A DNA stretch of 60,152 nt, taken from the NCBI GenBank assembly GCA_964652095.1, contig CAZZAC010000002.1, positions 1 to 60,152 on the forward strand, in the 5' to 3' direction. The translations under genes and the position numbers were made by a program. How positions within the stretch are numbered: position 1 is the stretch's first letter; each line of letters opens with the position of its first letter. The notes under the pieces were generated by a model. That model saw nothing but the letters and a program-made list of their open reading frames with translations. It did not search any database and was not told the DNA's origin. Of this stretch, positions 42,128 to 60,152 are shown one piece after another. The DNA comes from an uncultured Dehalococcoidales bacterium (lineage in GTDB: Bacteria > Chloroflexota > Dehalococcoidia > GIF9 > AB-539-J10).

Positions 42128-42255
42128 TTATTCGCAACAGCGGGTTTTTGTTGTTTACATCTCTGAGTGCCCTGTTATTTATCTCCGCTGTGCCAGATTA
42201 CGTGCTAGCAATACACCGACTGCACCGAAGTCAGTATTGTTCTCCGGTTATACCA

Positions 42256-42319: not shown

Positions 42320-42332
42320 GCGGTAAACACGC

Positions 42333-43022: not shown

Positions 43023-43026
43023 TCCT

Positions 43027-43090
43027 CATATTCCGGGGACATAATACCTAATTTGCAGTAGGCCTAATTGGCATGGCGCCCCTAGAATTC
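43027..43090 (+). repeat. 64-nt hairpin repeat (family 1), copy D (most diverged)
   Basis: catattccggggacataatacctaatttgcagtaggcctaattggcatggcgcccctagaattc. It fills the 71-nt gap between the Vms1-like gene stop and the methyltransferase start. Confidence 0.85.
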
Positions 43091-43093
43091 CCG

Positions 43094-43858: not shown

Positions 43859-43880
43859 CCGGCCGAATGAAATACTCTGG

Positions 43881-46268
43881 CTACATGCTGACTATGGTAA
43901 CGCCGTCACCACCCTCGCCCTGCTCCCCGGGCTGGAAAGACGTGACCAGCGGGTGAGAGGCCAGAATCTCCCTGACAATCTGACGCACGGTGCCCGTGCC
44001 GATACCGTGAATGATGCGGACCCGGCTCAAGCCGCATAAAGACGCTTCGTTAAGGTAGCCTTCCAGCGCCGGCTCGACCTCCTCAGCCCTCTTTCCCCGC
44101 AGGTCAAGCTCGAGAGAGACCCTGGACTTGCGCATCTCACTCCTTATCAGGGCGCTGCCCGTCTTCACCACGCCAGTTGATGGTATCCTCTTTTCCACGC
44201 TGTCCAGCCTGAGGGTCATCTTCACTTTCCCGGCATAGACTTCGACGAGCCCGCGTTCCTCAGACACTGATAGTACCGTAGCCGACACGCCAGCCTCTTT
44301 CAGCCAGACGGTATCACCGGCGGTGATTGGGCCTGTCCCGACTTCTGTTTCGTCTATCCCAACCGCCGGTCTGGCTTGCCATACCCCAGTATCTAACTGT
44401 TCCTGTGCCTCGGCTAGTGCCTTTTTCGCCTGCTCGATTCTTCCCCGCGATTTTTCCTTGCGCAATTCCGCTGCTGCCTCGCGAATTTTCATCTGTAATT
44501 CGGCAGCCTCGCAACCTATCCGGTCACGGGTCTCCTTGACGATTCTTCGTTTGTCCTCCTCCAACTGGCGGAGCCTGTTTCTCAAGTCCGCGTCGCTCTG
44601 TTCTGCCTCATTCAGTTCCTTCTCCAGGCTGTGGCGAAGCGACTCAACATTCTTCTGCTCGGTCACCAGATGGGTAAGCAAAGATTCAATCTCCTGGGCG
44701 CCTTGGGAAAGCATGTGCCGGGCGCGGGCCACAATCTCCGCAGGCAGTCCCAGACGAGATGCTGTAGCCAGAGCATTGCTGCCGCCCGGGATACCCACTG
44801 TCAGGTGATAGGTGGGCGCCATCGTAACGGGGTCCACATCCAGAGCCGCGTTTTCCACGCCGTCGGTAGCGTGAGCCAGTGCCTTTAATTCGGTGTAGTG
44901 AGTGGTGGCTACGGTCATCGTTCCCTGTGGTAAGAAATGGAGCAGGATAGCGCGGCCGAGAGCCGAGCCTTCGCCCGGGTCAGTGTTGGTGCCCAGTTCG
45001 TCTAACAGCACCAGGCTCTGTGCCGTGGCGTTGTTGATGATGCGCACGATGTTGCCTATGTGCCAGCTGAAGGTAGAAAGGGTCTGCTCGATGCTCTGCT
45101 CATCACCGATGTCGGCATATACGCCGTCATAAACGGGGATGCGGCTTTCCGCCTGAGCCGGAATGGGCAAGCCAGCCTGCGCCATCAGGCTGAGAAGTCC
45201 TATCGTCTTGAGGGCGACCGTCTTGCCACCGGTATTGGGCCCGGTGATGACCAGGACGGAGAAGTTCCGGCCAATCTCGACCGACAGCGGCACTGCCTTC
45301 TTTTTCAGCAGCGGATGTCTGGCTTCGACCAGCCTGAGCACTCCGGCCGGTTCATGTCCCTCTGACTTAGCATTTCTACCAGCGGCCACGATAATAGGCT
45401 CGGTGGCTTTGGCTTCTCTGGCGTATCTGGCCTTAGCCAGCGCCAGGTCAATCTCAGCAATCAGCTCAATGTCACGGGAAATTTCGCTTTCGAATGCTCC
45501 GACTTCAGCACTGAGCATTCTCAGTATCCTTTCTATTTCGTCCTTCTCTTCGGCACCCAGCTCGCGCAGTTCATTCTGCACGTCTGTAGTGGTCCATGGC
45601 TCAATAAATACCGTAGCCTCGGTATTGGAGACGTCGTGGACAATGCCCTTTATCTGCCGGCGACATTCCACCTTGACGGGAATTACATACCGGCCTTCCC
45701 GCTCGGTCACAATGGGATCCTGGATTATTTTCCGCCATCTGGGTGAGGTGATTATGGCTTGCAGGTGAGTGAGCAATTCCTGGCGCACTTCTCGCATTCT
45801 ATGCCTCACCGACGCCAGTTTATGTGAGGCGGTATCCAAAAGGTCGCCGGTCGGACTCAAGCAGCCATCAATATCCTTTTGAAGCTGGGCCAGTGTCACA
45901 ATGTCATTGGCCAGACCACTGAGTAACGGGAGTTCACCCGGCATGTTCACCAGGTGGCTTCTTAGCCTGTGGGCAGCGCCCAGCGTCTTTTGAATTTCCA
46001 ACAAAGATTGAGGGTCCAGGATTTTGCCGCGTGTCGCCATCTTCACCACTTCCCGGATATCAACAACTTCGCCGATATGGGTATCTGGACTGAGTGACAG
46101 CAAACGGCGTGCCTCAGCCGACTGCCTGAGCCGCAGGCGGACTTCTTCTTCATCCGAGAGAGGAGTGAGGTCGAGGGCCAGCTCTCGGCTGGCGGAAAAT
46201 GAAGTGAAGCCGGCTAGTATCTCCCTCATCTTGTGAAATTCCAGCAGTTCTAAATCGCTGTCGCCCAA
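43881..46268 (-). CDS. mutS2: MutS2 (endonuclease/ATPase with C-terminal Smr domain)
   Basis: 795 aa, with the MutS ATPase Walker A GPNTGGKT, a long coiled coil and a C-terminal Smr domain (LDLRGKRAEE...RIIHGIGTGTVR). Confidence 0.9.
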   Translation of the reverse strand: MGDSDLELLEFHKMREILAGFTSFSASRELALDLTPLSDEEEVRLRLRQSAEARRLLSLSPDTHIGEVVDIREVVKMATRGKILDPQSLLEIQKTLGAAHRLRSHLVNMPGELPLLSGLANDIVTLAQLQKDIDGCLSPTGDLLDTASHKLASVRHRMREVRQELLTHLQAIITSPRWRKIIQDPIVTEREGRYVIPVKVECRRQIKGIVHDVSNTEATVFIEPWTTTDVQNELRELGAEEKDEIERILRMLSAEVGAFESEISRDIELIAEIDLALAKARYAREAKATEPIIVAAGRNAKSEGHEPAGVLRLVEARHPLLKKKAVPLSVEIGRNFSVLVITGPNTGGKTVALKTIGLLSLMAQAGLPIPAQAESRIPVYDGVYADIGDEQSIEQTLSTFSWHIGNIVRIINNATAQSLVLLDELGTNTDPGEGSALGRAILLHFLPQGTMTVATTHYTELKALAHATDGVENAALDVDPVTMAPTYHLTVGIPGGSNALATASRLGLPAEIVARARHMLSQGAQEIESLLTHLVTEQKNVESLRHSLEKELNEAEQSDADLRNRLRQLEEDKRRIVKETRDRIGCEAAELQMKIREAAAELRKEKSRGRIEQAKKALAEAQEQLDTGVWQARPAVGIDETEVGTGPITAGDTVWLKEAGVSATVLSVSEERGLVEVYAGKVKMTLRLDSVEKRIPSTGVVKTGSALIRSEMRKSRVSLELDLRGKRAEEVEPALEGYLNEASLCGLSRVRIIHGIGTGTVRQIVREILASHPLVTSFQPGEQGEGGDGVTIVSM

Positions 46269-46413
46269 GGTAACCTTCCCGAGTCGCCTATACTCTCATC
46301 GCCATATTAATAATCATCGAATAGTATAAAGCAATCACCCCAGTTTTCAAAAAATCGGCTTCTCCAGCCAGGGGCGGACGAGATTACTTACGTCGTTTTA
46401 AAGAGGGTTCCAA

Positions 46414-46477
46414 GGTATTCTGGGGACATAATGCCTGATTTATGATAGGCTTAATTGGTATGGTGTCACTGGAATTC
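46414..46477 (+). repeat. 64-nt hairpin repeat (family 1), copy E
   Basis: ggtattctggggacataatgcctgatttatgataggcttaattggtatggtgtcactggaattc. It sits in the divergent promoter region between mutS2 and the AMP-ligase gene. Confidence 0.9.
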
Positions 46478-46479
46478 CA

Positions 46480-46509
46480 TTGACAGGAAATAGGAAATTG
46501 GCTCATAAT
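46480..46509 (+). promoter_or_regulatory. Sigma-70-type promoter of the AMP-ligase gene
   Basis: TTGACA (46480-46485), an 18-nt spacer, then CATAAT (46504-46509). The ATG lies at 46548 after GGGAGAG. The -35 hexamer starts 3 nt after repeat E. Confidence 0.5.
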
Positions 46510-46547
46510 CCTACTTCAAAAAACTCGTCAAGTCTTCGGGAGAGACA

Positions 46548-48041
46548 ATGAATCTCAAGCAGATGCTAGAAAGAACTGCCAGCGAGGTGCCACAGAATAT
46601 GGCTATCGTCCTTGGCTCTCGCAGGGTTAGCTACCGCGAATTGGATGAAACTTCTAACAGGATAGCCAACGCCCTTATAAGTCTAGGAACAAAGAAGGGC
46701 GACCACGTAGCCATTCTAATGTCTCGTACCCCTGAGTGGGTCATCAATTGTTTTGGAGTGCTTAAAGCTGGAGCTGTGGGCGTGCTCCTCGATGCCGGAG
46801 CTAAGGCGCCCGAACTTGAGCCTCTACTCCGTGAAACTGATTCCAAAATCCTGATTACCGAAGAAAGATTCTCCCCCATGCTGTCTTCAATTTTGCCCAA
46901 TATCCCCCTGCTGAAACAGGTTCCTGCAATTGGTACAGACCCTTACAATAGGATGGTGGCCAGCAGTTCCCCTGCATCACCCTCTGTCGATATAAAGGAC
47001 GAGGATGAAGCTATCGTTTTTTGCACCCTGGGCGTGCTGGGGAAGAACAAGGGCATAGTGCATACTCACGCGTCGTTCATGTCAATTTTGCCCATAGCGG
47101 TGGCAAAATTTGAACTGGAGAGAGACGATGTTATTTTGGGTATGCTACCTTTTAACAACCTTCTGGGATTTGGATTAGTCATTCTCCTGCCCGTTAAGAC
47201 GGGAGCCACCATAGCAATCCTCCCTCATTTCAGTTCCAAGAATATACTGGAGACTGTAGAGCAGGAAAAGGCAACCATGCTTATAGGCGTCCCGGCTAGC
47301 TTTAATGCCATGGCTATGATAGACGAAGAGACCATTAAGAGCTATGACCTTAGTTCGTTAAGGGCGGTGCTTTCTGCCGGAGCAAAATCCTCAGCCCTTT
47401 TTATGGGGATTCTTGAGAAAAAGTTTGGCTTAACTGCGTGCGAAATATATGGGCTCACGGAGTTGATAATCGTTACTCTGGGTGCTATTCGTGACCGCAA
47501 ATTGGGTACGGCGGGGAAACCCCTGGCTGAGCTCAGAGTGCTGGATAAAAACGGCAAGGAAGTACCCCGGGGCAGCGTAGGGGAAGCTGTTGCCCGAGCC
47601 CCCTGGATGATGAAAGAATATTACAAGTCGCCTGAACTCACGGCCCGGGTCCTCAAAGATGGTTGGTTTCATACTGGCGACCTGGTCAAGTTGGATGAGG
47701 ACGGCTACCTGGAGTTCATAGAAAAGACATCATCTATCATAGTGCCCTCGGGGGGAGTTAAGATTCTCCCCGCGGCAGTTGAAGAAGTTCTCCTGAGGCA
47801 CCCCGCGGTAGCCGAAACAGCCTGTGTCGGTGTCCTTGATGATTACAAAGGGCAAATACCCACAGCTTTTATAGTGCTTAAGGAAGGACAAAGTGCTACG
47901 GTGGACGAAATACGCGATTTTTGTCGCCGGAGCTTATCTGATTATAAAGTGCCCAAGCAAATCAAGTTTGTTGACAGCATGCCTAGAACCGGGTCGGGCC
48001 AAATAGACCGGAGACGACTCAGCGGGACAAAGGAAAGCTGA
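46548..48041 (+). CDS. AMP-dependent synthetase/ligase (acyl-CoA synthetase family)
   Basis: ANL superfamily architecture (YGLTE, GWFHTGD, C-terminal ..YKVPK..). Confidence 0.8.
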   Translation: MNLKQMLERTASEVPQNMAIVLGSRRVSYRELDETSNRIANALISLGTKKGDHVAILMSRTPEWVINCFGVLKAGAVGVLLDAGAKAPELEPLLRETDSKILITEERFSPMLSSILPNIPLLKQVPAIGTDPYNRMVASSSPASPSVDIKDEDEAIVFCTLGVLGKNKGIVHTHASFMSILPIAVAKFELERDDVILGMLPFNNLLGFGLVILLPVKTGATIAILPHFSSKNILETVEQEKATMLIGVPASFNAMAMIDEETIKSYDLSSLRAVLSAGAKSSALFMGILEKKFGLTACEIYGLTELIIVTLGAIRDRKLGTAGKPLAELRVLDKNGKEVPRGSVGEAVARAPWMMKEYYKSPELTARVLKDGWFHTGDLVKLDEDGYLEFIEKTSSIIVPSGGVKILPAAVEEVLLRHPAVAETACVGVLDDYKGQIPTAFIVLKEGQSATVDEIRDFCRRSLSDYKVPKQIKFVDSMPRTGSGQIDRRRLSGTKES

Positions 48042-48089
48042 AAAGAAGAACTAAAACGGCCGATCAGGCTGTTTTGCGGTGTCCAGCAC

Positions 48090-48153
48090 GGTGTTCTGGG
48101 GACATAATACCTGATTTGTAGTAGGCCTAATTGGTATGGTGTCCCTGGAATTC
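48090..48153 (+). repeat. 64-nt hairpin repeat (family 1), copy F
   Basis: ggtgttctggggacataatacctgatttgtagtaggcctaattggtatggtgtccctggaattc. Confidence 0.95.
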
Positions 48154-48346
48154 ACACTAGAGACAGGAAAATGCTACACTATAATAGAATAAAGCTGTAG
48201 GCGGGTGGTACTCGGAACTATCAAATGTCCCATAATTCCGCGAAAAATGCAGCAGTTTTGTGCACTTTGCCTAACCAGTGGCTGCTGTTGAAACCCGTGT
48301 TACGCCATTACTATTAATTGAATATAGACAATAAGGAGACACTGAT

Positions 48347-48832
48347 ATGCCAGAGTTAGGTTTAGGCGTCCCTTTCTGGGTAATCGTTTTAATATGGTTA
48401 GCTAAGGTCGTGTTGCTGGTCTTCATCTCTGCTCTTTTGGCATGGCTCGGAGTCAGAGCGCTGGATGCGATTATCCGTCAGGTCCCTTATCGCGAGCGCA
48501 TAGGCGAGAGCCCGGTGGCTGTCGGGTTGTTCACGGCAGGCTTCTTCATCCTGATTGGTCTTGTTATCCACGGCGCTATTACCGCACTCACTGCGGTCAC
48601 AGCTCCAATAGTGTGGTACATCTTCGACTTCAGGACGTGGGGGTTACTGGCTATGAGCTTTGCGATAAGCTTACTTCTTGGAGTAGCCCTATTCTATATC
48701 GTGGACAAGCTAACGCCCAAAATACCGTTTGCCAGTATTAACGAAAGCCCGGTGGCGGCAGGGCTACATGTCTCTGGTTATCTCATCTTCTTTGGCTTAA
48801 TACTCCATGCGGCACTGACCGGACCATTATGA
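48347..48832 (+). CDS. Small multi-TM membrane protein (DUF350-like, two internal halves)
   Basis: 161 aa with four hydrophobic helices and two similar halves (SPVAVGLFTAGFFILIGLVIHGAI / SPVAAGLHVSGYLIFFGLILHAAL). GGAG RBS is present. The family call is tentative. Confidence 0.5.
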   Translation: MPELGLGVPFWVIVLIWLAKVVLLVFISALLAWLGVRALDAIIRQVPYRERIGESPVAVGLFTAGFFILIGLVIHGAITALTAVTAPIVWYIFDFRTWGLLAMSFAISLLLGVALFYIVDKLTPKIPFASINESPVAAGLHVSGYLIFFGLILHAALTGPL

Positions 48833-49698
48833 AGACAGCTCGGGTTTTACTAAGTTTAATAGTTGTCTTATTAGCTGGGGTGGCGACTGCTGGTTATGCC
48901 TCGGCATTTTCATCTGCAGGTTTGCCCGAGAGAGATGGAGATACTTTTGATGATTGGGAGATATGCAGGACCAGGGCCTTCAGTGAAGACGGCTTTTATC
49001 AAATAACTGAGACAGGGTCTCATGAAATAGCGTTTCGTCCGGTCATAGCCTTCCAGAGCCTGGGGGAAAATGCTGACCTAGCCTACAGCCTGGGTGAGCA
49101 AATTGCCGCCAAATATCCAGACCCGCTACAGAGGGCAGAGGCGGTATTTCATTTTGTCCGTGACAGGGTGGAATATACCCCTGATATAGAGCAAACTGGA
49201 AATGAAGAGTTTGCCCAGAATGCCGACGAGCTGGCGATGACTATTGTCGAGGATGGAAGTGGGGAGGGTGATTGTGAAGATATGACGGTATTACTGGCGG
49301 TTATGTATAAAGCTGCCGGATTTCGCTCAGCTATAGTGCTTCCCTCAGGGCACACTGCGGTATTGGTTTATCTACCTGAATATAACGAGGCAACGGTTTT
49401 CTTTGAGCTGGAAGGTGAGCCAGGATGGATCTGGGCCGAGGCTACTGGCAGAAACAACCCGCTGGGTTGGGCGCCCGAGCAGTATCTTGATATGGAAATA
49501 CCTGCCTATGAAATTTTTGCCGAGATACCTGCCTACGAAATACCTTCCGAAGGAGTAGCTCCATTAACACCACCTCCCGCCGCGGAGATAGCGGTCGCCG
49601 GAATCGCAGGGGGAGTCACCTACCGACCGTATCTTTTTTTCATCGTAATTGGTCTATTGTGGTGTATGTCGTTGTTCGGACGGAAGCGAAGGCGTTGA
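48829..49698 (+). CDS. Secreted/anchored transglutaminase-like cysteine protease-fold protein
   Basis: An N-terminal signal, GEGDCEDMTVLLAVMYKAAGF ... SGHTAVLV (Cys/His of the transglutaminase-like core) and a C-terminal TM helix are present. There is an internal 27-nt-period duplication (EIPAYEI twice, 49495-49541). ATGA overlaps the upstream gene. Confidence 0.6.
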   Translation: MKTARVLLSLIVVLLAGVATAGYASAFSSAGLPERDGDTFDDWEICRTRAFSEDGFYQITETGSHEIAFRPVIAFQSLGENADLAYSLGEQIAAKYPDPLQRAEAVFHFVRDRVEYTPDIEQTGNEEFAQNADELAMTIVEDGSGEGDCEDMTVLLAVMYKAAGFRSAIVLPSGHTAVLVYLPEYNEATVFFELEGEPGWIWAEATGRNNPLGWAPEQYLDMEIPAYEIFAEIPAYEIPSEGVAPLTPPPAAEIAVAGIAGGVTYRPYLFFIVIGLLWCMSLFGRKRRR

Positions 49699-49728
49699 GC
49701 CAAGCCCCTGTATGCGTCGCCAGTGATC

Positions 49729-49798
49729 GGTATTCCGGGGACATAATACCTGATTTGTAGCAGGCCTAATTGGTATGGTGTCCCTGAAATTACCAATT
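49729..49798 (+). repeat. Hairpin repeat (family 1), copy G, variant 3' end (ccctgaaattaccaattc)
   Basis: ggtattccggggacataatacctgatttgtagcaggcctaattggtatggtgtccctgaaattaccaattc. It has the same variant 3' end as copy J. Confidence 0.9.
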
Positions 49799-49809
49799 CC
49801 GAAGACCCT

Positions 49810-49827
49810 GTACTAACGTCTTAGTAC
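49810..49827. promoter_or_regulatory. Perfect palindrome GTACTAA-cgtc-TTAGTAC upstream of the sRNA promoter (operator candidate)
   Basis: The 7-bp arms end 10 nt before the -35 hexamer. The site is identical in the second copy (53884-53901). Confidence 0.35.
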
Positions 49828-49837
49828 GTATGGGGAC

Positions 49838-49867
49838 TTGACAACTGGTCTATATATGTGCTAGTAT
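49838..49867 (+). promoter_or_regulatory. Sigma-70-type promoter with extended -10 (TTGACA-N18-TGcTAGTAT)
   Basis: TTGACA at 49838-49843, TG at 49859-49860 and TAGTAT at 49862-49867. The region is 100% identical in copy 2. Confidence 0.5.
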
Positions 49868-49873
49868 TAACAT

Positions 49874-50024
49874 TGTCCCGAGTAGCCGAGCAGGGACCTG
49901 GCATGAGAGTTGGGTTTGGTGAAAGCTGAAAGGTGCAGGTAGTGGCCAGCACAAGGTAAGCTGAAGGCCAGGCCGGACTATGGCAGGTGAAGAAAGTGAG
50001 GTTACTCGGGGCGTCTTATTTTTT
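49874..50024 (+). ncRNA. Candidate structured sRNA of about 150 nt, copy 1, family unknown
   Basis: It starts about 7 nt after the -10 hexamer. A 13-bp closing helix forms between GUCCCGAGUAGCC (49875-49887) and GGUUACUCGGGGC (50000-50012), followed by GUCUUAUUUUUU. There is no conserved ORF and no downstream + strand gene. Confidence 0.45.
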
Positions 50025-50060
50025 GCTGGCTAAGCGTCCTTGTCACAGTTTGAAATGACC

Positions 50061-50100
50061 CAATAAATAGGCTTGATACTTGCGTGGATATCAGCCTATT
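50061..50100 (-). terminator. Hairpin plus U-rich tail on the minus strand, downstream of the NAD(P)H-binding gene
   Basis: The minus strand reads AAUAGGCUGAUA-UCCACGCAAG-UAUCAAGCCUAUU followed by UAUUGGG. Confidence 0.4.
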
Positions 50101-50148
50101 CAAGTTTGACTCTTAACCAAAGTTCACCATCTACGCCTTTGATTTCGT

Positions 50149-50212
50149 GGTATTCTGGGGACATAATACCTGATTTGTAGTAGGCCTAATTGGGACGGTG
50201 TCCCTGGAATTC
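50149..50212 (+). repeat. 64-nt hairpin repeat (family 1), copy H
   Basis: ggtattctggggacataatacctgatttgtagtaggcctaattgggacggtgtccctggaattc. Its last 2 nt are part of the TGA stop of the 50211-50852 gene. Confidence 0.95.
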
Positions 50213-50852
50213 AGTAAGCGACAGTGAATCGTTCGCGAATGTGTTGCGGATGCTCAAGTTCATCGAGCATGGCAACGGCGTAGTCCTGCGTGGAGATTTT
50301 GCTTTCGCCTTCTTTGTTCTTAAGAAGTTGGTCTTTCCCAACCCGGTAATGCCCCGTCCGCTCTCCGGGGGCGATCGAGGATGGTGGACACAAGAATGTC
50401 CACTCAAGTTCATTTTCTTTCTTTAGCATGTAAAGTGTTTCCCTGGTTGCCAGTACTCCTTTTTTCACCTGCTCCGGGAAACTCACCGTATCAATGAGCT
50501 GCACGCCGGGGGCGACTTCAAGAGTTCCAGCCCCGCCGACAACCAGCAATCTTTTGATTCCCGACTTCTTGACCCCGCTGATAATCGCCTTATAACCCTT
50601 GATTTGCTCATTGTAGATATCTGGATTGCTCCAGCCGGGATTGTAGGCACTCATGACCGCGTCATGACCTTTCACGAGTTCGTCGACCTTATCTTTAAGA
50701 ATGTCCGCTTTCACAACGGTAAGACGTGGGTTCTGCACAGTTATCTTCTCAGGATGGCGCACAATCGCAGTTACCTGATGACCCCGCGCCAGTGCTTCAT
50801 CGCGAATGAATGCTCCAATCTGTCCGCTTGCTCCGATGATTGCTACTCTCAT
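50211..50852 (-). CDS. NAD(P)H-binding (NmrA/atypical SDR-like) protein
   Basis: MRVAIIGASGQIG is a Rossmann motif. 213 aa. Confidence 0.75.
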   Translation of the reverse strand: MRVAIIGASGQIGAFIRDEALARGHQVTAIVRHPEKITVQNPRLTVVKADILKDKVDELVKGHDAVMSAYNPGWSNPDIYNEQIKGYKAIISGVKKSGIKRLLVVGGAGTLEVAPGVQLIDTVSFPEQVKKGVLATRETLYMLKKENELEWTFLCPPSSIAPGERTGHYRVGKDQLLKNKEGESKISTQDYAVAMLDELEHPQHIRERFTVAY

Positions 50853-50915
50853 AAATGTAACCTCCCTTTATGCTTTCAAAGTTATTTCCCATCCCTCGCT
50901 TCTGGTGCTTCGCCC

Positions 50916-51560
50916 TTAGGTCAGACTGAAGAGAGGATACCGATCCGTTGTCAACAAAAAAGCGTATGCAGCTACTCTCAGCGACCATTGGTATACACCA
51001 GCTATGAAGTCAAATAAACCTCTAGGATAGCGACCAGTAAACAAGATGGCAAACCAGGCTATCACCACGCAGACGAAGGCTGCAATCCCCAAGAAGGCCA
51101 GGATGATGTAGTGTGGGATAGCTAGAAACCATTTCACTAGTGGTAACCAACGGTTAAGGTCTTTCGGGACGTCTGGATATGGGATCTCAAGGTGAACCGC
51201 CTGCTCTTCGTCAGTTGACGGGTATACATCTGTAAGCAGACTAATATAAGTGGCAACACGTATGCCGAACTTGGTCAATGCTATATTCCAATCAAACCAC
51301 CACTTGGGATACTTTTGCCGGAAAAGGATCATGAGTACGATTGGCAGAAACAAGGTACCTCCCGCAGTATATAGCCAGGTCCAACCATTCATTCCACTCC
51401 AATCAAAGTTCCCACCACTTACCAAGACCAGAATAATAGCGATTGGAATTACTGTGAAGATCCTGAAGAACGTGGTTAACCGATTAAGAGATCTGTCCGG
51501 GTAATCGATTGTTAAAGTGGCGGGATACGCGGGCGGGGTCGGCGACGCTTTTGTTGTCAT
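50916..51560 (-). CDS. DUF4389 domain-containing membrane protein
   Basis: LNRLTTFFRIFTVIPIAII and AWFAILFTGRYPRGLFDF are characteristic of the family. Confidence 0.7.
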   Translation of the reverse strand: MTTKASPTPPAYPATLTIDYPDRSLNRLTTFFRIFTVIPIAIILVLVSGGNFDWSGMNGWTWLYTAGGTLFLPIVLMILFRQKYPKWWFDWNIALTKFGIRVATYISLLTDVYPSTDEEQAVHLEIPYPDVPKDLNRWLPLVKWFLAIPHYIILAFLGIAAFVCVVIAWFAILFTGRYPRGLFDFIAGVYQWSLRVAAYAFLLTTDRYPLFSLT

Positions 51561-51642
51561 TGTTATTGATACCTCCCTTTATGTTTTGGCCTATAATGTG
51601 TTCACTTTCTAATTTAAGCATGCCCTATAATTTGTTGCAAGG

Positions 51643-51706
51643 GGTATTCTGGGGACATAATACCTGATTTGTAGTAGGCCTAATTGGTACGGTATCCCTG
51701 GAATTC
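51643..51706 (+). repeat. 64-nt hairpin repeat (family 1), copy I
   Basis: ggtattctggggacataatacctgatttgtagtaggcctaattggtacggtatccctggaattc. Its 3' 27 nt encode the last 8 codons and the stop of the 5'-nucleotidase ORF on the opposite strand. Confidence 0.95.
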
Positions 51707-53710
51707 TTTGTACTTTCTCCTACGGAGGAGCAGGAATACTATTCCCGCCGCAGTAACTGCCAGTATTAAGATAAGCCACCCTACCAGGGGGAAAGTCCAG
51801 GTTTTGTTGATGCGCCCGGCAACAGCTTCATAATAATCGGGTATCCGGGGTATTCCATCTACTCCCGGCAGCTGGGCCGCGGCGTAAATCACCACCGCCT
51901 CCCAAACTTTGAGCTCTTTTCCGTCGGCATTATGCACTATCAATTCGCCCAATCTTTCCAGCGGTACCGGCTCTCCATCGGCATTTTTAGGGACTATCTC
52001 CAGCTGGGGCAGCATGTCTGTCACCAAGGGGAGGAAGAGGAGGATGTAGGCGTCGGTAACCAGGTGGTACAACTTTTCATCTCCGCGCTTTAAGGGGACA
52101 TACCCTTCACCGTTTACAGGTTGAATCCCATCACCCGTGTAAAGCTCTGCTCTAGTAACCGCACGGGTCGTGGGAATAGGCAGGTTTACAAAAGGTATGG
52201 TCAAGAGCACTGCATTGGCGGGGTTGTAGCTGTACCGCAGGCCGGAGAACTGTAGAAAGAAAGAATCTCCCACAAACTCCTGCAGCAGTATGGTTACCTC
52301 CAGCAGACGGCGCACTTCTTCGCCGGTGAGATAGACAGACGCAATGGGACAACCTGCGTAGCCGTCGCGTCCGTGTCCCATGCCTGTAGCTTCGACAATC
52401 TCATAAAAGGAAACGTTTCCTGCAGAGTGTTCCATGGTGCCAGGAAAGATGCTTGTCCGGATGCAGCCGCTAGCCTGACATGCTACGTCGACCCTCTTGC
52501 CGATGACCTCCTGGGCAACCATGCGCATGGCGTCGGTAACGAAGTTGCCGAGCGGAGTTTCACTCAAGGGCAGCTGGTTGGACAGGATAAAGTCAGACCT
52601 GGCTACCGTACTCATGATATCGTCGAATTTGCCGCCGGTCATTTCATCGATGTACGCATTCAAGATGAGGGTATATTCCCGGACCAGGGCATCGATTTCC
52701 GGATGGCAGGCAAAGCTGTCGTCAATGGGAATAAGAAAGGGGCGGTCGTTTTCTTCGTTGCGCACCCGTACCTTGCCGGTGTTGGAGTTGTACGCCAGTT
52801 CAAGTTGCCCCAGGTACCTTCCCAGGGAACCAGCCTGGACAATGATGGTAGCGCCCTGTAAGACTGGCTTATATAGGGCGGTCTCACTGTGGCCGCCTAC
52901 GATTACGTCGATACCCGGGACCTCTCGTGCCAGTTCCCGGTCCTCATCCACGCCAGAGTGAGTTATGCCCACGATGACATTTGCACCCTGTTCTTTCAGC
53001 TCATCTACCGCCTGGCGGGCCGCCTCGTGCTGGTCCAGGAACTGCACGTCCCCGGTTTCACCGATTACCAGGATGGCGTCTTTACCTATAAGGCCGAAAA
53101 CTCCTACTTTCAGGCCGTTTTCCAGCTCAAACATCCCGGCCTTTCTGTAGAGACCCCGGGCAGCCAGCGGATGGGCTGGTGGCGCCTCCGTGTTGGAGGC
53201 CAGTACCAATGTTTTTTGGTGGGCTTCGGGGTATCCGGCCTGTAAAAGGTATTGCGCCAGGACGTCAGGGCCGTAATCGTACTCATGGTTGCCGATGACT
53301 ACGGCGTCATATCCCATCTCCTGCATTATGGTAAGCTCTGCGGCGTAACCACGGAGGGCCAGCCAAGCGAAAGCAGAGCCTCCCAGGAAATCACCGGCGT
53401 CAAAAAGAAGGACCGGCTCACCTTCCTTCATTTTGTTCTCTCGGATTTCGTCCACGGCGGTAGCCAGACGAGCGAACCCTCCTATAGCAGGGTCTTCTTT
53501 TTCGGGGTCGTAGTCTACTGCCGGCGAATGGGGTATCAGCGCGGACTGCATATCGTTGGTATGGAGTATACAGAAATACAGCTCTTCGGTTTCACCTGCG
53601 TAACTTTTCAAATTTCCCGGAATGCCCAGGAATGAGGCGACTACCAGGATGGTTATCAGAATACAGAACAACCCTTTGTTTGCCCTGAAAAGGCTGTTTC
53701 TGTTACACAT
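51680..53710 (-). CDS. Bifunctional metallophosphatase / 5'-nucleotidase with C-terminal membrane anchor
   Basis: Calcineurin-like motifs (HTNDMQS, GDFLGGS, GNHEYD, GGHSE), a 5'-nucleotidase C-terminal domain, a signal peptide and a C-terminal TM helix are present. The tail EFQGYRTN* is encoded by repeat I. Confidence 0.8.
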   Translation of the reverse strand: MCNRNSLFRANKGLFCILITILVVASFLGIPGNLKSYAGETEELYFCILHTNDMQSALIPHSPAVDYDPEKEDPAIGGFARLATAVDEIRENKMKEGEPVLLFDAGDFLGGSAFAWLALRGYAAELTIMQEMGYDAVVIGNHEYDYGPDVLAQYLLQAGYPEAHQKTLVLASNTEAPPAHPLAARGLYRKAGMFELENGLKVGVFGLIGKDAILVIGETGDVQFLDQHEAARQAVDELKEQGANVIVGITHSGVDEDRELAREVPGIDVIVGGHSETALYKPVLQGATIIVQAGSLGRYLGQLELAYNSNTGKVRVRNEENDRPFLIPIDDSFACHPEIDALVREYTLILNAYIDEMTGGKFDDIMSTVARSDFILSNQLPLSETPLGNFVTDAMRMVAQEVIGKRVDVACQASGCIRTSIFPGTMEHSAGNVSFYEIVEATGMGHGRDGYAGCPIASVYLTGEEVRRLLEVTILLQEFVGDSFFLQFSGLRYSYNPANAVLLTIPFVNLPIPTTRAVTRAELYTGDGIQPVNGEGYVPLKRGDEKLYHLVTDAYILLFLPLVTDMLPQLEIVPKNADGEPVPLERLGELIVHNADGKELKVWEAVVIYAAAQLPGVDGIPRIPDYYEAVAGRINKTWTFPLVGWLILILAVTAAGIVFLLLRRRKYKEFQGYRTN

Positions 53711-53803
53711 TAACGATTACCCTTCTCCTTAAGACAGTACAAGCCCGGTCGACAACCAGCGTCTTAAAGGAAAAACTACTGAATGATATCATAGACTACA
53801 CCT

Positions 53804-53873
53804 GGTATTCTGGGACATAATACCTGATTTGTAGTAGGCCTGATTGGTATGGTGTCCCTGAAATTACCAATTC
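53804..53873 (+). repeat. Hairpin repeat (family 1), copy J, variant 3' end
   Basis: ggtattctgggacataatacctgatttgtagtaggcctgattggtatggtgtccctgaaattaccaattc, with a 1-nt deletion in the 5' arm. Confidence 0.9.
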
Positions 53874-53883
53874 CGAAGACCCT

Positions 53884-53901
53884 GTACTAACGTCTTAGTA
53901 C
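53884..53901. promoter_or_regulatory. Palindrome GTACTAA-cgtc-TTAGTAC (operator candidate), copy 2
   Basis: Identical to 49810-49827. Confidence 0.35.
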
Positions 53902-53911
53902 GTATGGGGAC

Positions 53912-53941
53912 TTGACAACTGGTCTATATATGTGCTAGTAT
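53912..53941 (+). promoter_or_regulatory. Promoter with extended -10, copy 2
   Basis: Identical to 49838-49867. Confidence 0.5.
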
Positions 53942-53947
53942 TAACAT

Positions 53948-54098
53948 TGTCCCGAGTAGCCGAGCAGGAACCTGGCATAAGAGTTGGGTTTGGTGGAAGC
54001 TTAAAGGTGCAGGTAGTGGCCAGCACAAGGTAAGCTGAGGGCCAGGCCGGACGATAGCAGGTGAAGTAAGTGAGGTTACTCGGGGCGTCTGATTTTTT
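53948..54098 (+). ncRNA. Candidate structured sRNA, copy 2
   Basis: It differs from copy 1 by 9 substitutions, all outside the three helices I propose. The closing helix and U-tract are the same. Confidence 0.45.
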
Positions 54099-54134
54099 GC
54101 TGGCTAAGCATCCCTGTCGCAGCTTGAAATGACC

Positions 54135-54174
54135 CAATAAATAGGCTTGATACTTGCGTGGATATCAGCCTATT
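54135..54174 (-). terminator. Minus-strand hairpin plus U-rich tail downstream of the Lpd-like gene
   Basis: Identical to the hairpin at 50061-50100. Confidence 0.4.
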
Positions 54175-54222
54175 CAAGTTTGACTCTTAACCACAGTTCA
54201 CCATCTACGCCTTTGATTCCGT

Positions 54223-54286
54223 GGTATTCTGGGGATATAATACCTGATTTGTAGTAGGCCTAATTGATATGGTGTCCCTGGAATTC
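54223..54286 (+). repeat. 64-nt hairpin repeat (family 1), copy K
   Basis: ggtattctggggatataatacctgatttgtagtaggcctaattgatatggtgtccctggaattc. Confidence 0.95.
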
Positions 54287-54349
54287 TGATGATAACCAAA
54301 TCATATGCATCTTTCATTGACCACCTCCAAGACCCATTATATTGCGAAT

Positions 54350-55720
54350 CTAGGAATCCTCTAGGCTATTGATGGTGTACTTTACTAGTTCTGAAAGGGC
54401 AGGGTGAATGTGAATTCCCTGTTCGAGCTCCTCCATACCGCCACCGGATGTCATTGCGTTGACAACTTCTTGAATGAGCTCTGGTGCGTACGGCCCTATG
54501 ATATGAAAACCAAGTATTCTGTTGCTACCTTTCTCCACTATTGCCTTAGCGAAACCCTCCTTTTCCATCATGGCCTCGCCCTTGGCAATATCGAAGTATT
54601 TCATCCTACCGATGAGAACATCATGGCCTTCCCTAGCCTGCACCTCCGTCATGCCTACCGACGCAACCTGAGGATGTGAGTACACCGCGTGAGGAACGGC
54701 GCTGTAGTCAACCTTGATATTCGTGCCATAGAAGGCATTCTGCGCAACGATTTCAGCTTCCCTGTTAGCCATATGCCTGAACATCTGCTGGCCGTTGGCA
54801 TCCCCAATAGCGAAAATACCCCTCCGATTCGTCTCGAGGTATTCGTTGACCTTGACAAAGCCCTTCTTGTCTGTCTCCACTCCGGTATTTTCTACTTTTA
54901 ATATATCTGCGTTAGACCTTCTACCCACAGCCATCATAATCCTTTGTGCAGCAAATTCCCTGCGCTTGCCGGAATTAGTATCCTTTGCAATAACCACAAC
55001 ACCATGCTCGCTTTGTTTTACTTCCTCTACCAAGGCATTTGTATGGACTCCCATGCGCTTGCTCAACTCATTCCCCAGGAGTGCAGAGATTTCGGGGTCC
55101 TCGGATAGAACCAACCTGTCAGCCATCTCGAGAATGGCAACTTCAGTGCCCATAGCCGCAAAGAAATGCCCGAATTCTACAGCGATATAGCCACCACCAA
55201 TGATGATGAGGCTGTCCGGTTTTTCTTTTAGCTCCAGCACCGATTCGTTGGTAAGGTAGTCTACATTTTCCGAGCCTTTAATCGGAGGTATGAACGGTCG
55301 CGATCCGGATGCAATGAAAATCCTTTCCCCTTTAAGTTTCTCTCCATTGACCTCAAGCAGGTAGTCACCCACGAAATATCCTTCACCTTCATAAAAATCC
55401 AGGTTCTTAGACTGCTTGATACCCTTTCTAATATGAACCTGACTTTCCTGTCTGCTCTTTCTCATCCTCTCCATTATTGATTTAAAATCTACGTTCTTTA
55501 TCTCCGCTTCAATACCCAGCTTCTTCCCTTCCTCAATTTCTACAATGCGGTCGGCTGTGTAAATCAGCATTTTGGATGGTATACAACCCCAGTTGAGGCA
55601 AGTTCCGCCTATTAATGGTCCCTTGTCTATGAGTGCTGCCTTTAGACCTTGCGCTGCGGCTTCTTCCGAAATGATTGCTCCAGCCCCCGAGCCGATGACT
55701 ATAACGTCGTAACTCTTCAA
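54350..55720 (-). CDS. Pyridine nucleotide-disulfide oxidoreductase (dihydrolipoyl dehydrogenase family)
   Basis: GSGAGA FAD fold, redox-active GGTCLNWGCIPSK, and a C-terminal dimerisation domain with HIHPALSE. Confidence 0.75.
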   Translation of the reverse strand: MKSYDVIVIGSGAGAIISEEAAAQGLKAALIDKGPLIGGTCLNWGCIPSKMLIYTADRIVEIEEGKKLGIEAEIKNVDFKSIMERMRKSRQESQVHIRKGIKQSKNLDFYEGEGYFVGDYLLEVNGEKLKGERIFIASGSRPFIPPIKGSENVDYLTNESVLELKEKPDSLIIIGGGYIAVEFGHFFAAMGTEVAILEMADRLVLSEDPEISALLGNELSKRMGVHTNALVEEVKQSEHGVVVIAKDTNSGKRREFAAQRIMMAVGRRSNADILKVENTGVETDKKGFVKVNEYLETNRRGIFAIGDANGQQMFRHMANREAEIVAQNAFYGTNIKVDYSAVPHAVYSHPQVASVGMTEVQAREGHDVLIGRMKYFDIAKGEAMMEKEGFAKAIVEKGSNRILGFHIIGPYAPELIQEVVNAMTSGGGMEELEQGIHIHPALSELVKYTINSLEDS

Positions 55721-55831
55721 TGTTGATCACCTCCTTCTCCGTGTTTATCACTTTTGCGTTTACACGGTCTAAACCACTTGTCAATATAACTGTCTCTCTC
55801 GTGATAAGAGGGTTAGGTTGGAGTCATTTTA

Positions 55832-56896
55832 TCACGTCAATTCGATCACCGTTTTGATATTATCTGGATCGGGATCAAGCCCATCCCTGAACTTATGCAG
55901 TGTAAGCCGTCGAGTAATTAGTCTTGCTAGCCAGCCAGGCCATTTCTTTTCTATACAAAGCAGTGACTCGACTGATCTTTCAAAATGGCTACGGTTAGAA
56001 CTGACGGTGCCGAATACTGTCTTATTACCCAACACCATCTGCATGTTTAAACACGAAGCATCAACCTCAAGCGGCTTCTGGCCGGTCGATACTCCCATCA
56101 GGCATAAAATCCCGTTTGTCCCCAGGGCACTCATCGCCTGGAAGGCGACAGTACTATTGCCGGTAACTTCCATAATCAGATCAAGATTCCCAATCTTATG
56201 TGGTAAACTCACGACCGGTGACTCATTTCCGTCGACGTAATTGGCACCGATGCTTTCGACAAGTTGTGCCTTCACACTTGATCTAGGCACTACATCAAGA
56301 GTGTATATATTGTAATCATGAAGCTTTAGCAGTGCCGTCGTCAGCAGGCCTAATGGTCCCGCCCCAAGCACCACGGCGATGTTAATTGAATTGGCACTTC
56401 GATTATGAAATCCTATAGCCTTTTCTATTCCCTTTGTAGCAATGCTTGTTGGTTCGGTAAGCACAGCGATATTTCGTAGTTCTTCGGGAACCGGCACCAA
56501 GAAAGCTGCATCTTCAGCAAGATACTCTCTCAGAAATCCATGCGCACCCTTTATGCCACATTCTTGGTAGTTACCCTTAAGGCACATATCAGGCTGGCCT
56601 CTCCGACAGTCAACACAGTCGTCGGGACGCCTGACCATCGGCACTACAAATTCGCCCTTGCCCAACTCCGTTGTACCAGGATTCTCAATCTGACCGAGAG
56701 CTTCGTGCCCCCAGACAATGAAGTCATTGTCTGGGGGTGGTTCTCCGTATTCACCCCGGTTGATCTCTATATCGGTACCATCAATCCCCAATTCAAGCAG
56801 TCTGACCAAGACCTGACCGCCTGAAATGGCTGGCATATCCATTTCAATCAATCTAGCACTGTCTTTTTGCCCTGGTGTTACTACCCCAGCTCTCAT
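55832..56896 (-). CDS. Zn-dependent medium-chain dehydrogenase, glucose 1-dehydrogenase-like
   Basis: GIDGTDIEI..G.YG and WGHEALG resemble archaeal-type glucose dehydrogenases. A GAGPLG Rossmann fold is present. Confidence 0.6.
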   Translation of the reverse strand: MRAGVVTPGQKDSARLIEMDMPAISGGQVLVRLLELGIDGTDIEINRGEYGEPPPDNDFIVWGHEALGQIENPGTTELGKGEFVVPMVRRPDDCVDCRRGQPDMCLKGNYQECGIKGAHGFLREYLAEDAAFLVPVPEELRNIAVLTEPTSIATKGIEKAIGFHNRSANSINIAVVLGAGPLGLLTTALLKLHDYNIYTLDVVPRSSVKAQLVESIGANYVDGNESPVVSLPHKIGNLDLIMEVTGNSTVAFQAMSALGTNGILCLMGVSTGQKPLEVDASCLNMQMVLGNKTVFGTVSSNRSHFERSVESLLCIEKKWPGWLARLITRRLTLHKFRDGLDPDPDNIKTVIELT

Positions 56897-56919
56897 TCTT
56901 CACCTCCCTCTCTTTTCTT

Positions 56920-58713
56920 TTATATCGCCTGTGTTAACTCCAGTCCTGTAATAATAACCGCCAGATGAGTCAAAGCCTGTGGGAAATTACCCAAGGCCTC
57001 TCCTGTAACAGGGTTGACTATTTCAGAAAAAAGACCTAAATGATTACCATAGCCGAGCAGTCTTTCGTAAAGCTCAACGGCATCCTCAAGTTTTCCCAAC
57101 CTAAGTAAGTTGCGAACTAACCAGAATGTGCACCACAGAAATGCGCCTTCAGAACCTTTCAGCCCATCGTCAGTCTCATCAGTTCTGTACCTGCGTAGGA
57201 GGCCATTCCAGCTGAGTTCATCAGTAGCATGGTTGATAGTAGATTTGATCCGCTTATCAGAGACGGGCAAGAAGCCGAAAAGAGGTATTAATAGAGCACT
57301 GGCGTCTAGAGCTTCCGTATCATAGTGCTGGGTAAAGGTCTCCTTCTTTGGGTTCCAGCCCTTAGTCAGAATGTCACTGCGTATATCCTCGGCAGCCTGA
57401 CGCCAGTAACCGACCTTCTCGTTTCGCTCGAGACTCTGGGCCAGTTTTATTCCCCTATCTACAGCTACCCAGCACATGACTTTAGAGTGAACAAAATGGA
57501 ACGGACCTCCCCTTACTTCCCAGATGCCACTGTCTGGTTCTGGCCATAGTTCACAGGCAGCATCAACAAATGTCTCCAGTAGTTTCCAGTCCTTACTACT
57601 TATGTAGCCGCCGATTTTTACATAGTTGTACGCTGCTTCGAGCACTTCGCCAAAGATATCCAGCTGGCGCTGGTTATAAGCACCATTACCGATTCGTACC
57701 GGCCGGGACCTACGGTAGCCTTCCAAGTGATCTAGAGTTCGTTCATCAAGAGGATCCCCAAAATCGATATCGTATAGAATCTGTGCTTTAGGGCCACATC
57801 TTTCGCATACGTTGAGTAACCATTTCATGAAGCCGATAGCTTCTTCTTTGTGTCCCAGCGAAGAAAAAGCATTGAGGGTAAGAGAGGCATCACGGAGCCA
57901 TGTAAAGCGGTAGTCCCAGTTTCTTTCGCCACCGATTTCTTCAGGGAGGGAGGTGGTTGGAGCGGCGACGATTGCTCCTGTCAGCGAGTATACCAGCAGG
58001 TGTAGGGCCAGGTAAGAGCGCACTATATAATATCGATATGGACCCGAATAAACACAGCCCTCTGCCTGTTGCTGCCAGTATCCCTTTGTTTGAGAAAGCT
58101 TGATCAGTGAGTTCTTTATAACACCGGTGAGCGGTTTATCCGAACCATACCTTAATACGAAGACAACTTTCTCTCCACGCTGCAGGTTAACAGTTGCCGT
58201 GGCTTGGTCTCCGAGATCTTTGAATGGGACGGACGACGATAGTGATACAGGAGCTCCGCCACCTGTGACCACTACACCATACTGTGCGACAGTTAGCGAG
58301 GGATCAACTGTAGCATATCCTGGTTTGGGCTTAAATGTGACCGTGAGCTCGACTTGCCCGTCAGTGCACTCTGCCATACGATGGATTTCATTGAATTGTA
58401 CGTGTTTGCCATCCGTCCTTTCGTAGCAGGGCATGAAGTCCGTTAACGTCACTGTACCAGTGTCAGTTTGAAAAACCGTCTGCAACACGTTGGTTTCACC
58501 CAAATAAGATTGACTGGATTCGAAGTGCAAGCTCGGTTTTATGCCAAACCTTCCACCTTTCTCATCGTCAAGAATGGCGGCAAATATGCTGGGCGAATCA
58601 AACCTGGGAAGACAGCACCAGTCAATGGAACCATCCCTGGCTACCAGGGCTGCTGAAACCATGTTCCCAATGATGCCGTAGTCACTAATCGGTTTATAGA
58701 CCAAACCTGACAC
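56920..58713 (-). CDS. Glycoside hydrolase family 15 (glucoamylase/trehalase-type)
   Basis: The N-terminal ISDYGIIGNMVSAALVARDGSIDWCCLPRFDSPSIFAAILD is typical of GH15. 597 aa. Confidence 0.8.
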   Translation of the reverse strand: MSGLVYKPISDYGIIGNMVSAALVARDGSIDWCCLPRFDSPSIFAAILDDEKGGRFGIKPSLHFESSQSYLGETNVLQTVFQTDTGTVTLTDFMPCYERTDGKHVQFNEIHRMAECTDGQVELTVTFKPKPGYATVDPSLTVAQYGVVVTGGGAPVSLSSSVPFKDLGDQATATVNLQRGEKVVFVLRYGSDKPLTGVIKNSLIKLSQTKGYWQQQAEGCVYSGPYRYYIVRSYLALHLLVYSLTGAIVAAPTTSLPEEIGGERNWDYRFTWLRDASLTLNAFSSLGHKEEAIGFMKWLLNVCERCGPKAQILYDIDFGDPLDERTLDHLEGYRRSRPVRIGNGAYNQRQLDIFGEVLEAAYNYVKIGGYISSKDWKLLETFVDAACELWPEPDSGIWEVRGGPFHFVHSKVMCWVAVDRGIKLAQSLERNEKVGYWRQAAEDIRSDILTKGWNPKKETFTQHYDTEALDASALLIPLFGFLPVSDKRIKSTINHATDELSWNGLLRRYRTDETDDGLKGSEGAFLWCTFWLVRNLLRLGKLEDAVELYERLLGYGNHLGLFSEIVNPVTGEALGNFPQALTHLAVIITGLELTQAI

Positions 58714-58783
58714 GCTCCTTCATTTCTCTTACTTGATCTTATTGCCATAGCTACATAGACTTAAGGCCTTGTTCCTGTATCGA

Positions 58784-59746: not shown

Positions 59747-59789
59747 GTCATTCTCCTTTATTCAGGATTGATTTGCGTGTTATTAATGC

Positions 59790-60062
59790 TTAATTGCTTA
59801 CCATGGATTTTATAATAGCACGAGCAGGAGCGCCATCTCTTCCAACAATTCTCAGTGGTAAACATATGAGGTTGTATTTGCCAGGCGTTGCATCTGATAG
59901 GTTCAGTCCTTCAATAGTCCATATACCACTACTGAGAAGTGTCTTATGTACATAGGGTCCGCCATGCTTGAAACTCCCGACAGACAGATAATCAGCGCCA
60001 ATCAACTGTATGCCCCGATTCGCAATGTATTCTGTGGAAATAATACCTGATTTGTAGTAGGC
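59790..60062 (-). pseudogene. C-terminal fragment of a cyclase-family (arylformamidase-like) gene, truncated at repeat L
   Basis: ...IQLIGADYLSVGS...IEGLNLSDATPGKYNLICLPLRIVGRDGAPARAI resembles the last third of PF04199 cyclases. The frame runs upstream into repeat L and is closed by the TAG of its central palindrome (60063-60065). Confidence 0.45.
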
Positions 60063-60089
60063 CTAATTGGTATGGTGTCCCTGGAAATC
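60026..60089 (+). repeat. 64-nt hairpin repeat (family 1), copy L
   Basis: tgtattctgtggaaataatacctgatttgtagtaggcctaattggtatggtgtccctggaaatc. Confidence 0.9.
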
Positions 60090-60152
60090 CTGATACTTTA
60101 CACCTTTGTCAGAGTGTTTTTTCTCGCCTTTCTCAAGTGAGTGGGCTCTTTG

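Follow-up and report, generated by a model that had tools for sequence, protein, structure and literature searches.

The window analyzed here (i.e., the whole stretch of 60,152 nucleotides [nt] from contig CAZZAC010000002.1 of an uncultured Dehalococcoidales bacterium) carries, immediately downstream of argG, a series of short repeats that separate small gene modules. Two of these modules are near copies of one another and consist of a promoter and a predicted rod-shaped RNA between two repeats. We consider this RNA-encoding unit, which has no open reading frame (ORF), to be probably the most recurrent cassette in an integron-like but noncanonical array that is anchored at argG in a sediment clade of Dehalococcoidia.

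Twelve copies of the 63- to 64-nt repeat were detected, all on the plus strand and within positions 36712 to 60090 (nhmmer profile search; E values of 1e-19 to 1e-23). They start at positions 36712, 39568, 42257, 43028, 46415, 48091, 49730, 50150, 51644, 53805, 54224, and 60027, and the same search gave no match in positions 1 to 36711. Chance does not account for the family, as a 30-mer with up to 3 mismatches matched 10 times, compared with 0 times in 100 shuffles. The first repeat begins 2 nt past the argG stop codon, and repeats occupy nearly every intergenic space of the 23-kb stretch, irrespective of the direction of the neighboring genes. The features of the array and of the region around the two RNA-encoding units are as follows.

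36712..60090, plus strand: in-window part of the cassette array, with 12 co-oriented repeats; it runs past the window end and continues in the related locus L005.
49730..49793, plus strand: repeat G, which separates RNA cassette A from the DUF350/transglutaminase cassette and whose 3' tip reads ...CCCTGAAATTACCAATTC.
49794..50149, plus strand: cargo of RNA cassette A (356 nt), a member of the commonest cassette cluster.
49838..49867, plus strand: sigma-70-type promoter, TTGACA-18-TAGTAT, with 10 of 12 consensus matches and a TG one base upstream of the -10 element (extended -10).
49875..50024, plus strand: predicted rod-like RNA of about 150 nt (ends inferred), with a 14-bp closing stem and then UUAUUUUUU.
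50066..50100, no strand: second hairpin, AATAGGCTTGATA...ATATCAGCCTATT, read from the sequence and followed by TTTATT on the minus strand; it may act as a terminator for transcription coming from the right, and in some relatives a deletion breakpoint falls here.
50139..50167, plus strand: promoter-like TTGATT-17-CATAAT (a consensus match only), pointing outward, with its -35 element in the cargo tail and its -10 element within repeat H.
50150..50213, plus strand: repeat H, with the variant GGGACGG, which is also found in L005 copies situated on the right-hand side of an RNA cargo.
50214..51643, minus strand: NAD(P)H-binding and DUF4389 cassette (genes 50211..50852 and 50916..51560; Pfam).
51644..51707, plus strand: repeat I, which contains the stop codon of the 5'-nucleotidase gene.
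51708..53804, minus strand: 5'-nucleotidase cassette (gene 51680..53710; Pfam).
53805..53867, plus strand: repeat J, which lacks one base close to the 5' end and shares its 3' tip variant with repeat G.
53868..54223, plus strand: cargo of RNA cassette B (promoter at 53912 to 53941, predicted RNA at about 53949 to 54098).
54224..54287, plus strand: repeat K (nhmmer profile match).

The two units, at positions 49729 to 50213 and 53804 to 54287, align end to end; they differ by 23 substitutions and an indel of one base (95.1% identity). A first-pass annotation of this DNA had recognized the full-length alignment and the indel but had counted only about 15 substitutions. Its proposal that similarity is bounded by the outer edges of the repeats was borne out by a comparison of the 100 nt beyond each unit end, in which the two copies showed no relation.

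That the pair results from an ordinary segmental duplication, or from a chimeric or collapsed contig, is highly improbable. Arrays of this kind often lie at contig ends, and assemblers struggle with repeats, but the flanks are unrelated right to the repeat edges (identity falls to background beyond the outer edge of both repeats) and the copies differ at 23 positions. Moreover, L005, which stems from an independent assembly of another sample and shares 97% nucleotide identity with window positions 42077 to 60152, has the RNA unit at both equivalent positions, and its two units differ from one another; neither window copy is therefore an assembly artifact. The arrangement of copy A, intervening cassettes, and copy B has been kept in L005 across 3% nucleotide divergence, and multicopy RNA cassettes also occur in L006, L136, and L138.

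A 21-mer from the RNA matched four species-level Dehalococcoidia (Chloroflexota) metagenome-assembled genomes in the GTDB genome set. Loci of relatives were collected as contigs encoding homologs of the 5'-nucleotidase, of argG, and of the FAD-oxidase cassette gene; further loci came from a repeat-pattern scan of metagenomes (among the matches listed) and from one IMG/VR viral contig (L127). Combined with the window, the set comprised at least 137 loci (about 1 Mb, with some loci overlapping) and at least 434 repeats.

Seven distinct relatives were fetched via argG (L128/129, L130/131, L132, L134, L135, L137, and L138). All seven keep the synteny dnaE-argJ-argB-argD-argG where the locus extends that far, and none has a repeat in up to 10 kb upstream of argG. 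Directly downstream of argG the repeats begin, and there the gene order is different in each relative. The first repeat adjoins the argG stop codon in the window, L128/129, L130/131, and L137; one or two genes intervene in L132, L134, L135, and L138. The arrays, which are rich in toxin-antitoxin genes, extend without ending over at least 23.5 kb (L128 plus L133) and at least 28 kb (L135 plus L136). The argG stop codon adjoins the end of an NAD(P)H-binding gene in L134 (5425 to 5441) and L138 (about 19910 to 19920). Only GTAGGTAGGGCC lies between the two genes in L134; it resembles the repeat center (GTAGTAGGCC), as though the two arms had been lost.

Repeat-to-repeat spacing has a median of about 1 kb, and most modules hold a single gene. 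The shuffled modules include NAD(P)H-binding, DUF4389, DUF350/transglutaminase, AMP-binding, methyltransferase, baeRF-MutS2, 5'-nucleotidase, FAD-oxidase/CCG, radical SAM, and 4HBT modules and many toxin-antitoxin modules, and their order differs in every genome. Homology blocks stop at the repeats. Window positions 43029 to 46478 and 51642 to 53865 recur from repeat to repeat in L006 with unrelated neighbors (the 5'-nucleotidase cassette at 95% nucleotide identity), and positions 42325 to 43027 and 50917 to 51605 lie side by side in L001. Compared with the window, L005 has one extra 360-nt cassette, whose insertion point lies precisely at the junction of repeat G with the RNA cargo, and L125 and L138 show the order transglutaminase-RNA-5'-nucleotidase, without the NAD(P)H/DUF4389 cassette in between. 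Near-identical cassettes always keep their orientation with respect to the repeats; reverse-strand cassette matches are at paralog level (72 to 81%), with one exception, which lies in a locus with mixed repeat orientation. Among cassettes of 250 to 1,600 nt, the longest ORF is on the minus strand in 66 and on the plus strand in 46, and 32 have no ORF. The genes for a baeRF_family10/acVLRF1-like release factor homolog and for MutS2 (Smr domain), at window positions 43094 to 46268, form one joint cassette in every array examined.

The view in the first-pass annotation that the unit was copied as a repeat-bounded module, and not within a larger segmental duplication, agrees with the occurrence of repeat-cargo-repeat at 82 to 97% identity and with unrelated neighbors in more than 20 other loci. 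The two direct repeats had been taken for the ends of the unit itself. However, each module of the array shares one repeat of the same family and orientation with the next; the unit therefore amounts to one cassette (about 420 bp) together with the boundary of the adjoining one. Similarly, what had been read as a three-gene block between the copies is an NAD(P)H/DUF4389 cassette and a 5'-nucleotidase cassette, which are separate elsewhere (L001, L125, L134, and L138); the NAD(P)H-binding and DUF4389 genes even form separate cassettes in L001, L134, and L138. Excision or amplification of the 3.6-kb block by recombination between the copies had also been suggested. Recombination is plausible in view of the mosaic patterns described below, which are indirect evidence, but no excision or amplification product of this block was seen among the loci compared.

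The left repeat of both units ends in the variant CCCTGAAATTACCAATTC, as previously pointed out. The variant goes with the cargo, and in other genomes this junction reads GAATTGCTAATTC or plain GAATTC. A HicB cassette has GGAATTCGGAATTC. These tip variants at GAATTC (GAATTGCTAATTC, GGAATTCGGAATTC, and CCCTGAAATTACCAATTC) indicate that the GAATTC tip is a frequent joint.

Clustering of 211 inter-repeat segments identified the RNA cargo as the commonest cassette, with 24 members in 20 loci, followed by a HicB-like antitoxin with 9 of the 211 (both among the matches listed). One to three RNA cassettes are present per array (two in the window, three in L005, two in L006, three in L136, and two in L138), always co-oriented with the repeats and next to diverse neighbors. 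The TTGACA and TAGTAT hexamers are kept in all 20 close copies, and the 18-nt spacer is variable. For the predicted RNA, the minimum free energy is -71.4 kcal/mol for copy A (z score, -6.1) and -68 kcal/mol for copy B (z score, -6.75), and the first and last bases pair in the 14-bp stem that closes the rod, after which comes a U-tract. The consensus fold of 21 distinct copies has 43 pairs with 97.5% of cells paired, and most changes are single-sided and pair keeping. The cargo would combine a strong sigma-70 promoter with the gene for a stable RNA rod of about 150 nt whose 3' end is a U-tract.

The remainder of the cargo is a tail of about 125 nt with the second hairpin; this tail is absent from lineages with shortened cassettes (L126 and L114/L027). 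Truncated RNA cassettes in L005 (291 to 573), L114 (1127 to 1380), and L027 are fused exactly between AATAAATAGGC and CTGAT; the truncation joins the cargo hairpin (TAGGCTTGAT) to the repeat center (TAGGCCTGAT), a recurrent microhomology deletion. In L003 (1523 to 1648), an ORF with an rve-type transposase C terminus (...RPHQALGYLTPQEF...) stops just upstream of the RNA promoter; an insertion sequence (IS) element has entered the left part of that RNA cassette.

The RNA resembles no family in the collections searched. Rfam 15 gave no match over the whole window at gathering thresholds, and the sole match for positions 49600 to 50300 at an E value of ≤10 was a chance 10-bit match to a vertebrate long noncoding RNA model. 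No conserved ORF or hidden peptide was found in the RNA cargo across copies. A covariance model (R1) run over 669 kb revealed no distant members beyond one 84-bit homolog in L104; this homolog (13342 to 13496, minus strand) is without the TTGACA/TAGTAT promoter; beyond it lie a dodecin-like gene, which has a promoter of its own, and then a partial repeat. BLAST searches with the RNA unit against plasmid and phage collections gave no match, and in IMG/VR one contig had the repeat and none had the RNA. We rejected 6S RNA, signal recognition particle RNA, retron noncoding RNA, and riboswitches on shape (i.e., a single rod with small purine-rich internal loops), and also because there is no central bubble, no nearby reverse transcriptase, and no downstream gene in the cassette. 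A guide or "bridge" RNA was likewise rejected, the longest RNA-repeat identity or complementarity being 7 nt. The predicted RNA would, we infer, be expressed and function in trans. Given the purine-rich character of its unpaired segments, a protein-binding RNA would be our guess; our confidence in any specific function is low.

The abundance of this cassette could also suggest an autonomous-looking mobile element. In that case, the RNA unit would be a noncoding mobile element resembling a miniature inverted-repeat transposable element or a palindrome-associated transposable element (PATE), with its own hairpin ends, copied onto single-stranded DNA by a transposase acting in trans, and the other repeats would be solo ends or relics. 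In elements of the IS200/IS605 family, each end has a similar subterminal hairpin, both of them on one strand, and PATEs are their transposase-less derivatives. The RNA cassette shares with them same-strand subterminal hairpins around a short noncoding cargo and a strand-asymmetric hairpin stability; its overrepresentation (24 members versus at most 9 for any other cassette) and the small duplications at the GAATTC tip (GAATTGCTAATTC and GGAATTCGGAATTC) fit such an element as well. However, modules encoding MutS2, 5'-nucleotidase, and toxin-antitoxin pairs are equally repeat bounded and shuffled, so that the hairpins are common to neighboring gene modules and the termini are those of the array-wide repeat. 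Insertion of a two-ended element would leave doubled repeats, of which none were seen; neighbors instead share one repeat, and several RNA copies (L002, L003, and L006_4253) are without a complete left repeat. No target site duplication is visible in the flanks, no TnpA/TnpB, target tetranucleotide, or insertion signature was identified, and a crude IS608 TnpA probe matched no Y1 transposase in 853 kb of repeat-bearing loci. We regard this origin of the RNA unit as quite unlikely.

The RNA copies appear to have exchanged sequence. The promoter-proximal part of window copy A is as in copy B and in the B-position copy of L005 (ACCAATTCCGAAGACCC type), and its 3' part matches the A-position copy of L005 (CTATGG, GAAGAAAG, TCTTATT, and GTCACAG). 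This mosaic pattern, read from the aligned copies, indicates gene conversion between cassette copies.

The repeat itself is an imperfect palindrome of 63 to 64 nt, with 21-nt arms and a 21-nt loop (TGATTTGTAGTAGGCCTRATT) that is as conserved as the arms. Its arms contain invariant T.T and A.G mismatches, and three positions form a G.T wobble on the plus strand only. When folded, the hairpin was more stable on the plus strand in 243 of 252 distinct copies as RNA and in 197 of 252 as DNA, and folding of the repeat is plausible. Across the at least 137 loci, 430 of 434 copies are co-oriented and 4 are in the minority orientation within their own locus (among the matches listed). The GC skew of the oriented loci, which was positive in 37 of 80, was uninformative with respect to a replication-strand explanation of this polarity. 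In a subfamily of repeats, a 13-nt mini-hairpin insertion (CCTTCACAAGGTGAAGG) replaces part of the 3' arm (L004:1031-1107, L006:4180-4252, L027, L032, and L114); its presence in several genomes suggests that repeat subfamilies spread between arrays.

In their behavior, these arrays are closest to sedentary chromosomal integrons (such as the Vibrio superintegron with its VCR attC sites) and to CALINs (i.e., clusters of attC sites without an integrase). Integrons, with which bacteria stockpile and shuffle gene cassettes, are defined by IntI and by attC sites with an AAC/GTT core. The attC sites, which are co-oriented imperfect palindromes of 57 to 141 nt between mostly single-gene cassettes, contain the motifs R'' (RYYYAAC) and R' (GTTRRRY) with the AAC...GTT triplets; intI, attI, and Pc lie beside the first cassette, and cassette ORFs are co-oriented with the site at their 3' end. 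The shared traits are a long chromosomal array at a fixed locus, mostly single-gene cassettes of about 1 kb, co-oriented imperfect palindromes of about 60 nt that are highly similar within the lineage, and many toxin-antitoxin, ORF-less, and duplicated cassettes. In both, cassette order and content vary between close relatives and orientation relative to the sites is kept.

The differences concern the site, the integrase, and the cassettes. The repeat ends are GTATTC...GAATTC, with the consensus GGTATTCTGGGGACA...TGTCCCTGGAATTC on the plus strand and GAATTCCAGGG...CCCCAGAATACC on the minus strand; unlike those of attC, they have no AAC or GTT on either strand, and no consistent GTT lies just outside the repeat. 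No intI, attI, or Pc is present at the argG end, where neither the window nor the relatives fetched via argG have an integrase. Pfam identified no recombinase in the window, and among proteins clustered from the array-edge flanks, only core and defense-like genes recur. Cassette ORFs face both ways (66 versus 46), loop and arms of the repeat are conserved to the same degree, and a housekeeping-like mutS2 lies within cassettes. Given that no integrase was found at the argG end or elsewhere in the loci sampled, none of which reaches a distal array end, that the AAC/GTT core is missing, and that the genes face both ways, we read the array as integron-like and not as a canonical integron. Array anatomy, the shuffling of whole cassettes, and the RNA cassette's recurrence and constant orientation are direct observations, as are its promoter and structure signals.

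Modules bounded by short sites, with the same module in different contexts, are also known as pdif modules from Acinetobacter plasmids. Their XerC/XerD sites are served by an unlinked housekeeping recombinase, and a comparable idea could apply here. However, pdif sites are 28 bp long and alternate in orientation, whereas the repeats are 63 nt, all direct, and chromosomal; a by-eye comparison of the repeat with a dif core (GGGGACATAAT-ACCTGA-TTTGTAGTAGG) gave a weak resemblance.

Several results weigh against the interpretation as a cassette array joined at the repeats with a structured RNA as cargo. Compensatory changes in the repeat arms are rare to almost absent and do not demonstrate a folded-strand mechanism. 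In a pairwise covariation test, repeat polymorphisms were only weakly linked to the left or right flank, and because the linkage is weak on both sides, a single fixed crossover point is not demonstrated. This weak linkage fits crossovers anywhere in the repeat (i.e., homologous recombination), or frequent homogenization, better than one fixed crossover point. Two crude probes, XerD (at an E value of <0.01) and IS608 TnpA, had no match in 853 kb of repeat-bearing loci, a sample that did not include distal array ends. For the RNA, only 2 double changes were found, and 31 of 500 shuffles reached the observed covariation score. The structure is supported by thermodynamics and conservation, covariation being not yet proof. 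The candidate terminator, finally, is the long-range closing stem plus U-tract and not a canonical short hairpin, and a terminator scan made no call.

Some of these results would suit an array without any dedicated system, in which the repeats are selfish palindromes like those of the repetitive extragenic palindrome (REP)/REPIN type, inserted independently, and in which module shuffling and the RNA duplication are by-products of homologous recombination. The repeats are indeed short, multicopy, extragenic imperfect palindromes; as in REP elements, GTAG is part of the core and the single strand forms a hairpin. Solitary repeats were detected between core genes as well (L043, L046, L048, and L106). 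The weak linkage of repeat polymorphisms to the flanks, gene conversion among the RNA copies, the lack of a recombinase near the arrays, and the location of housekeeping-like genes such as mutS2 between repeats are in line with this explanation. It does not account well for the extreme clustering (0 repeats in 36.7 kb versus 12 in 23.4 kb of the window), the sharp edge of the array at argG, which is the same in the relatives fetched via argG, or the near-absolute polarity of repeats that bound shuffled gene modules. Known REP families are spread across extragenic space, commonly in both orientations or as inverted pairs. REP-associated tyrosine transposases (RAYTs) are Y1 HUH enzymes, and the cognate gene is flanked by repeats. 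No RAYT-like gene was seen with the IS608 TnpA probe, a weak one that is distant from RAYTs, and no informative empty orthologous site was found. Independently inserted REP-like repeats are, in our judgment, an unlikely explanation.

If the units are cassettes of an integron-like array, as we favor, the co-oriented 63-nt palindromes would be the joints where modules enter or leave the array, are duplicated, or change their order. Duplication or reinsertion of the RNA cassette via recombination at the repeats would have produced the second window copy, and the two copies would since have exchanged sequence by gene conversion. Either a site-specific recombinase from an unlinked locus or homologous recombination of the RecA type could act on the repeats. 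Their near-absolute polarity, together with the strand-asymmetric stability of the hairpin, inclines us to a site-specific or single-strand mechanism. A bolder proposal is that the arrays constitute a cassette-capture system distinct from integrons, with its own 63-nt site and a recombinase encoded elsewhere, and that the RNA cassette is a working part of it. The RNA might then serve as a cofactor, or strong transcription might drive folding and recombination of the adjacent repeats; we treat this proposal as a tentative possibility that we would not expect to hold.

If a dedicated recombinase exists, the arrays would represent a second, independent solution to cassette capture; if there is none, they would illustrate how closely ordinary recombination between polar repeats may imitate an integron. 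A widespread uncultured Dehalococcoidia lineage of sediments shows integron-like population behavior with a different joint sequence. The promoter-plus-RNA cassette is a candidate for a new RNA family and a concrete example of ORF-less cassette content.

Arrays were very often located at contig ends (L001, L004, L005, L006, L134, and others). Assemblies of these genomes are probably broken here by the repeat family, and for annotation, the repeats account for the contig breaks at this locus. The IMG/VR contig L127 (16,235 nt) carries terminase- and portal-like genes beside a small array with a HicB cassette and is among the few loci with repeats in both orientations; L127 and the L032 contig are probably the same record. 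Outside the array, window positions 4471 to 4755 contain four to five tandem 57-nt repeats within a 403-amino-acid ORF (4124..5335, minus strand) without a Pfam match, and positions 6492 to 9150 encode two adjacent serpin paralogs (427 and 430 amino acids) with about 80% nucleotide identity across 1.3-kb direct repeats.

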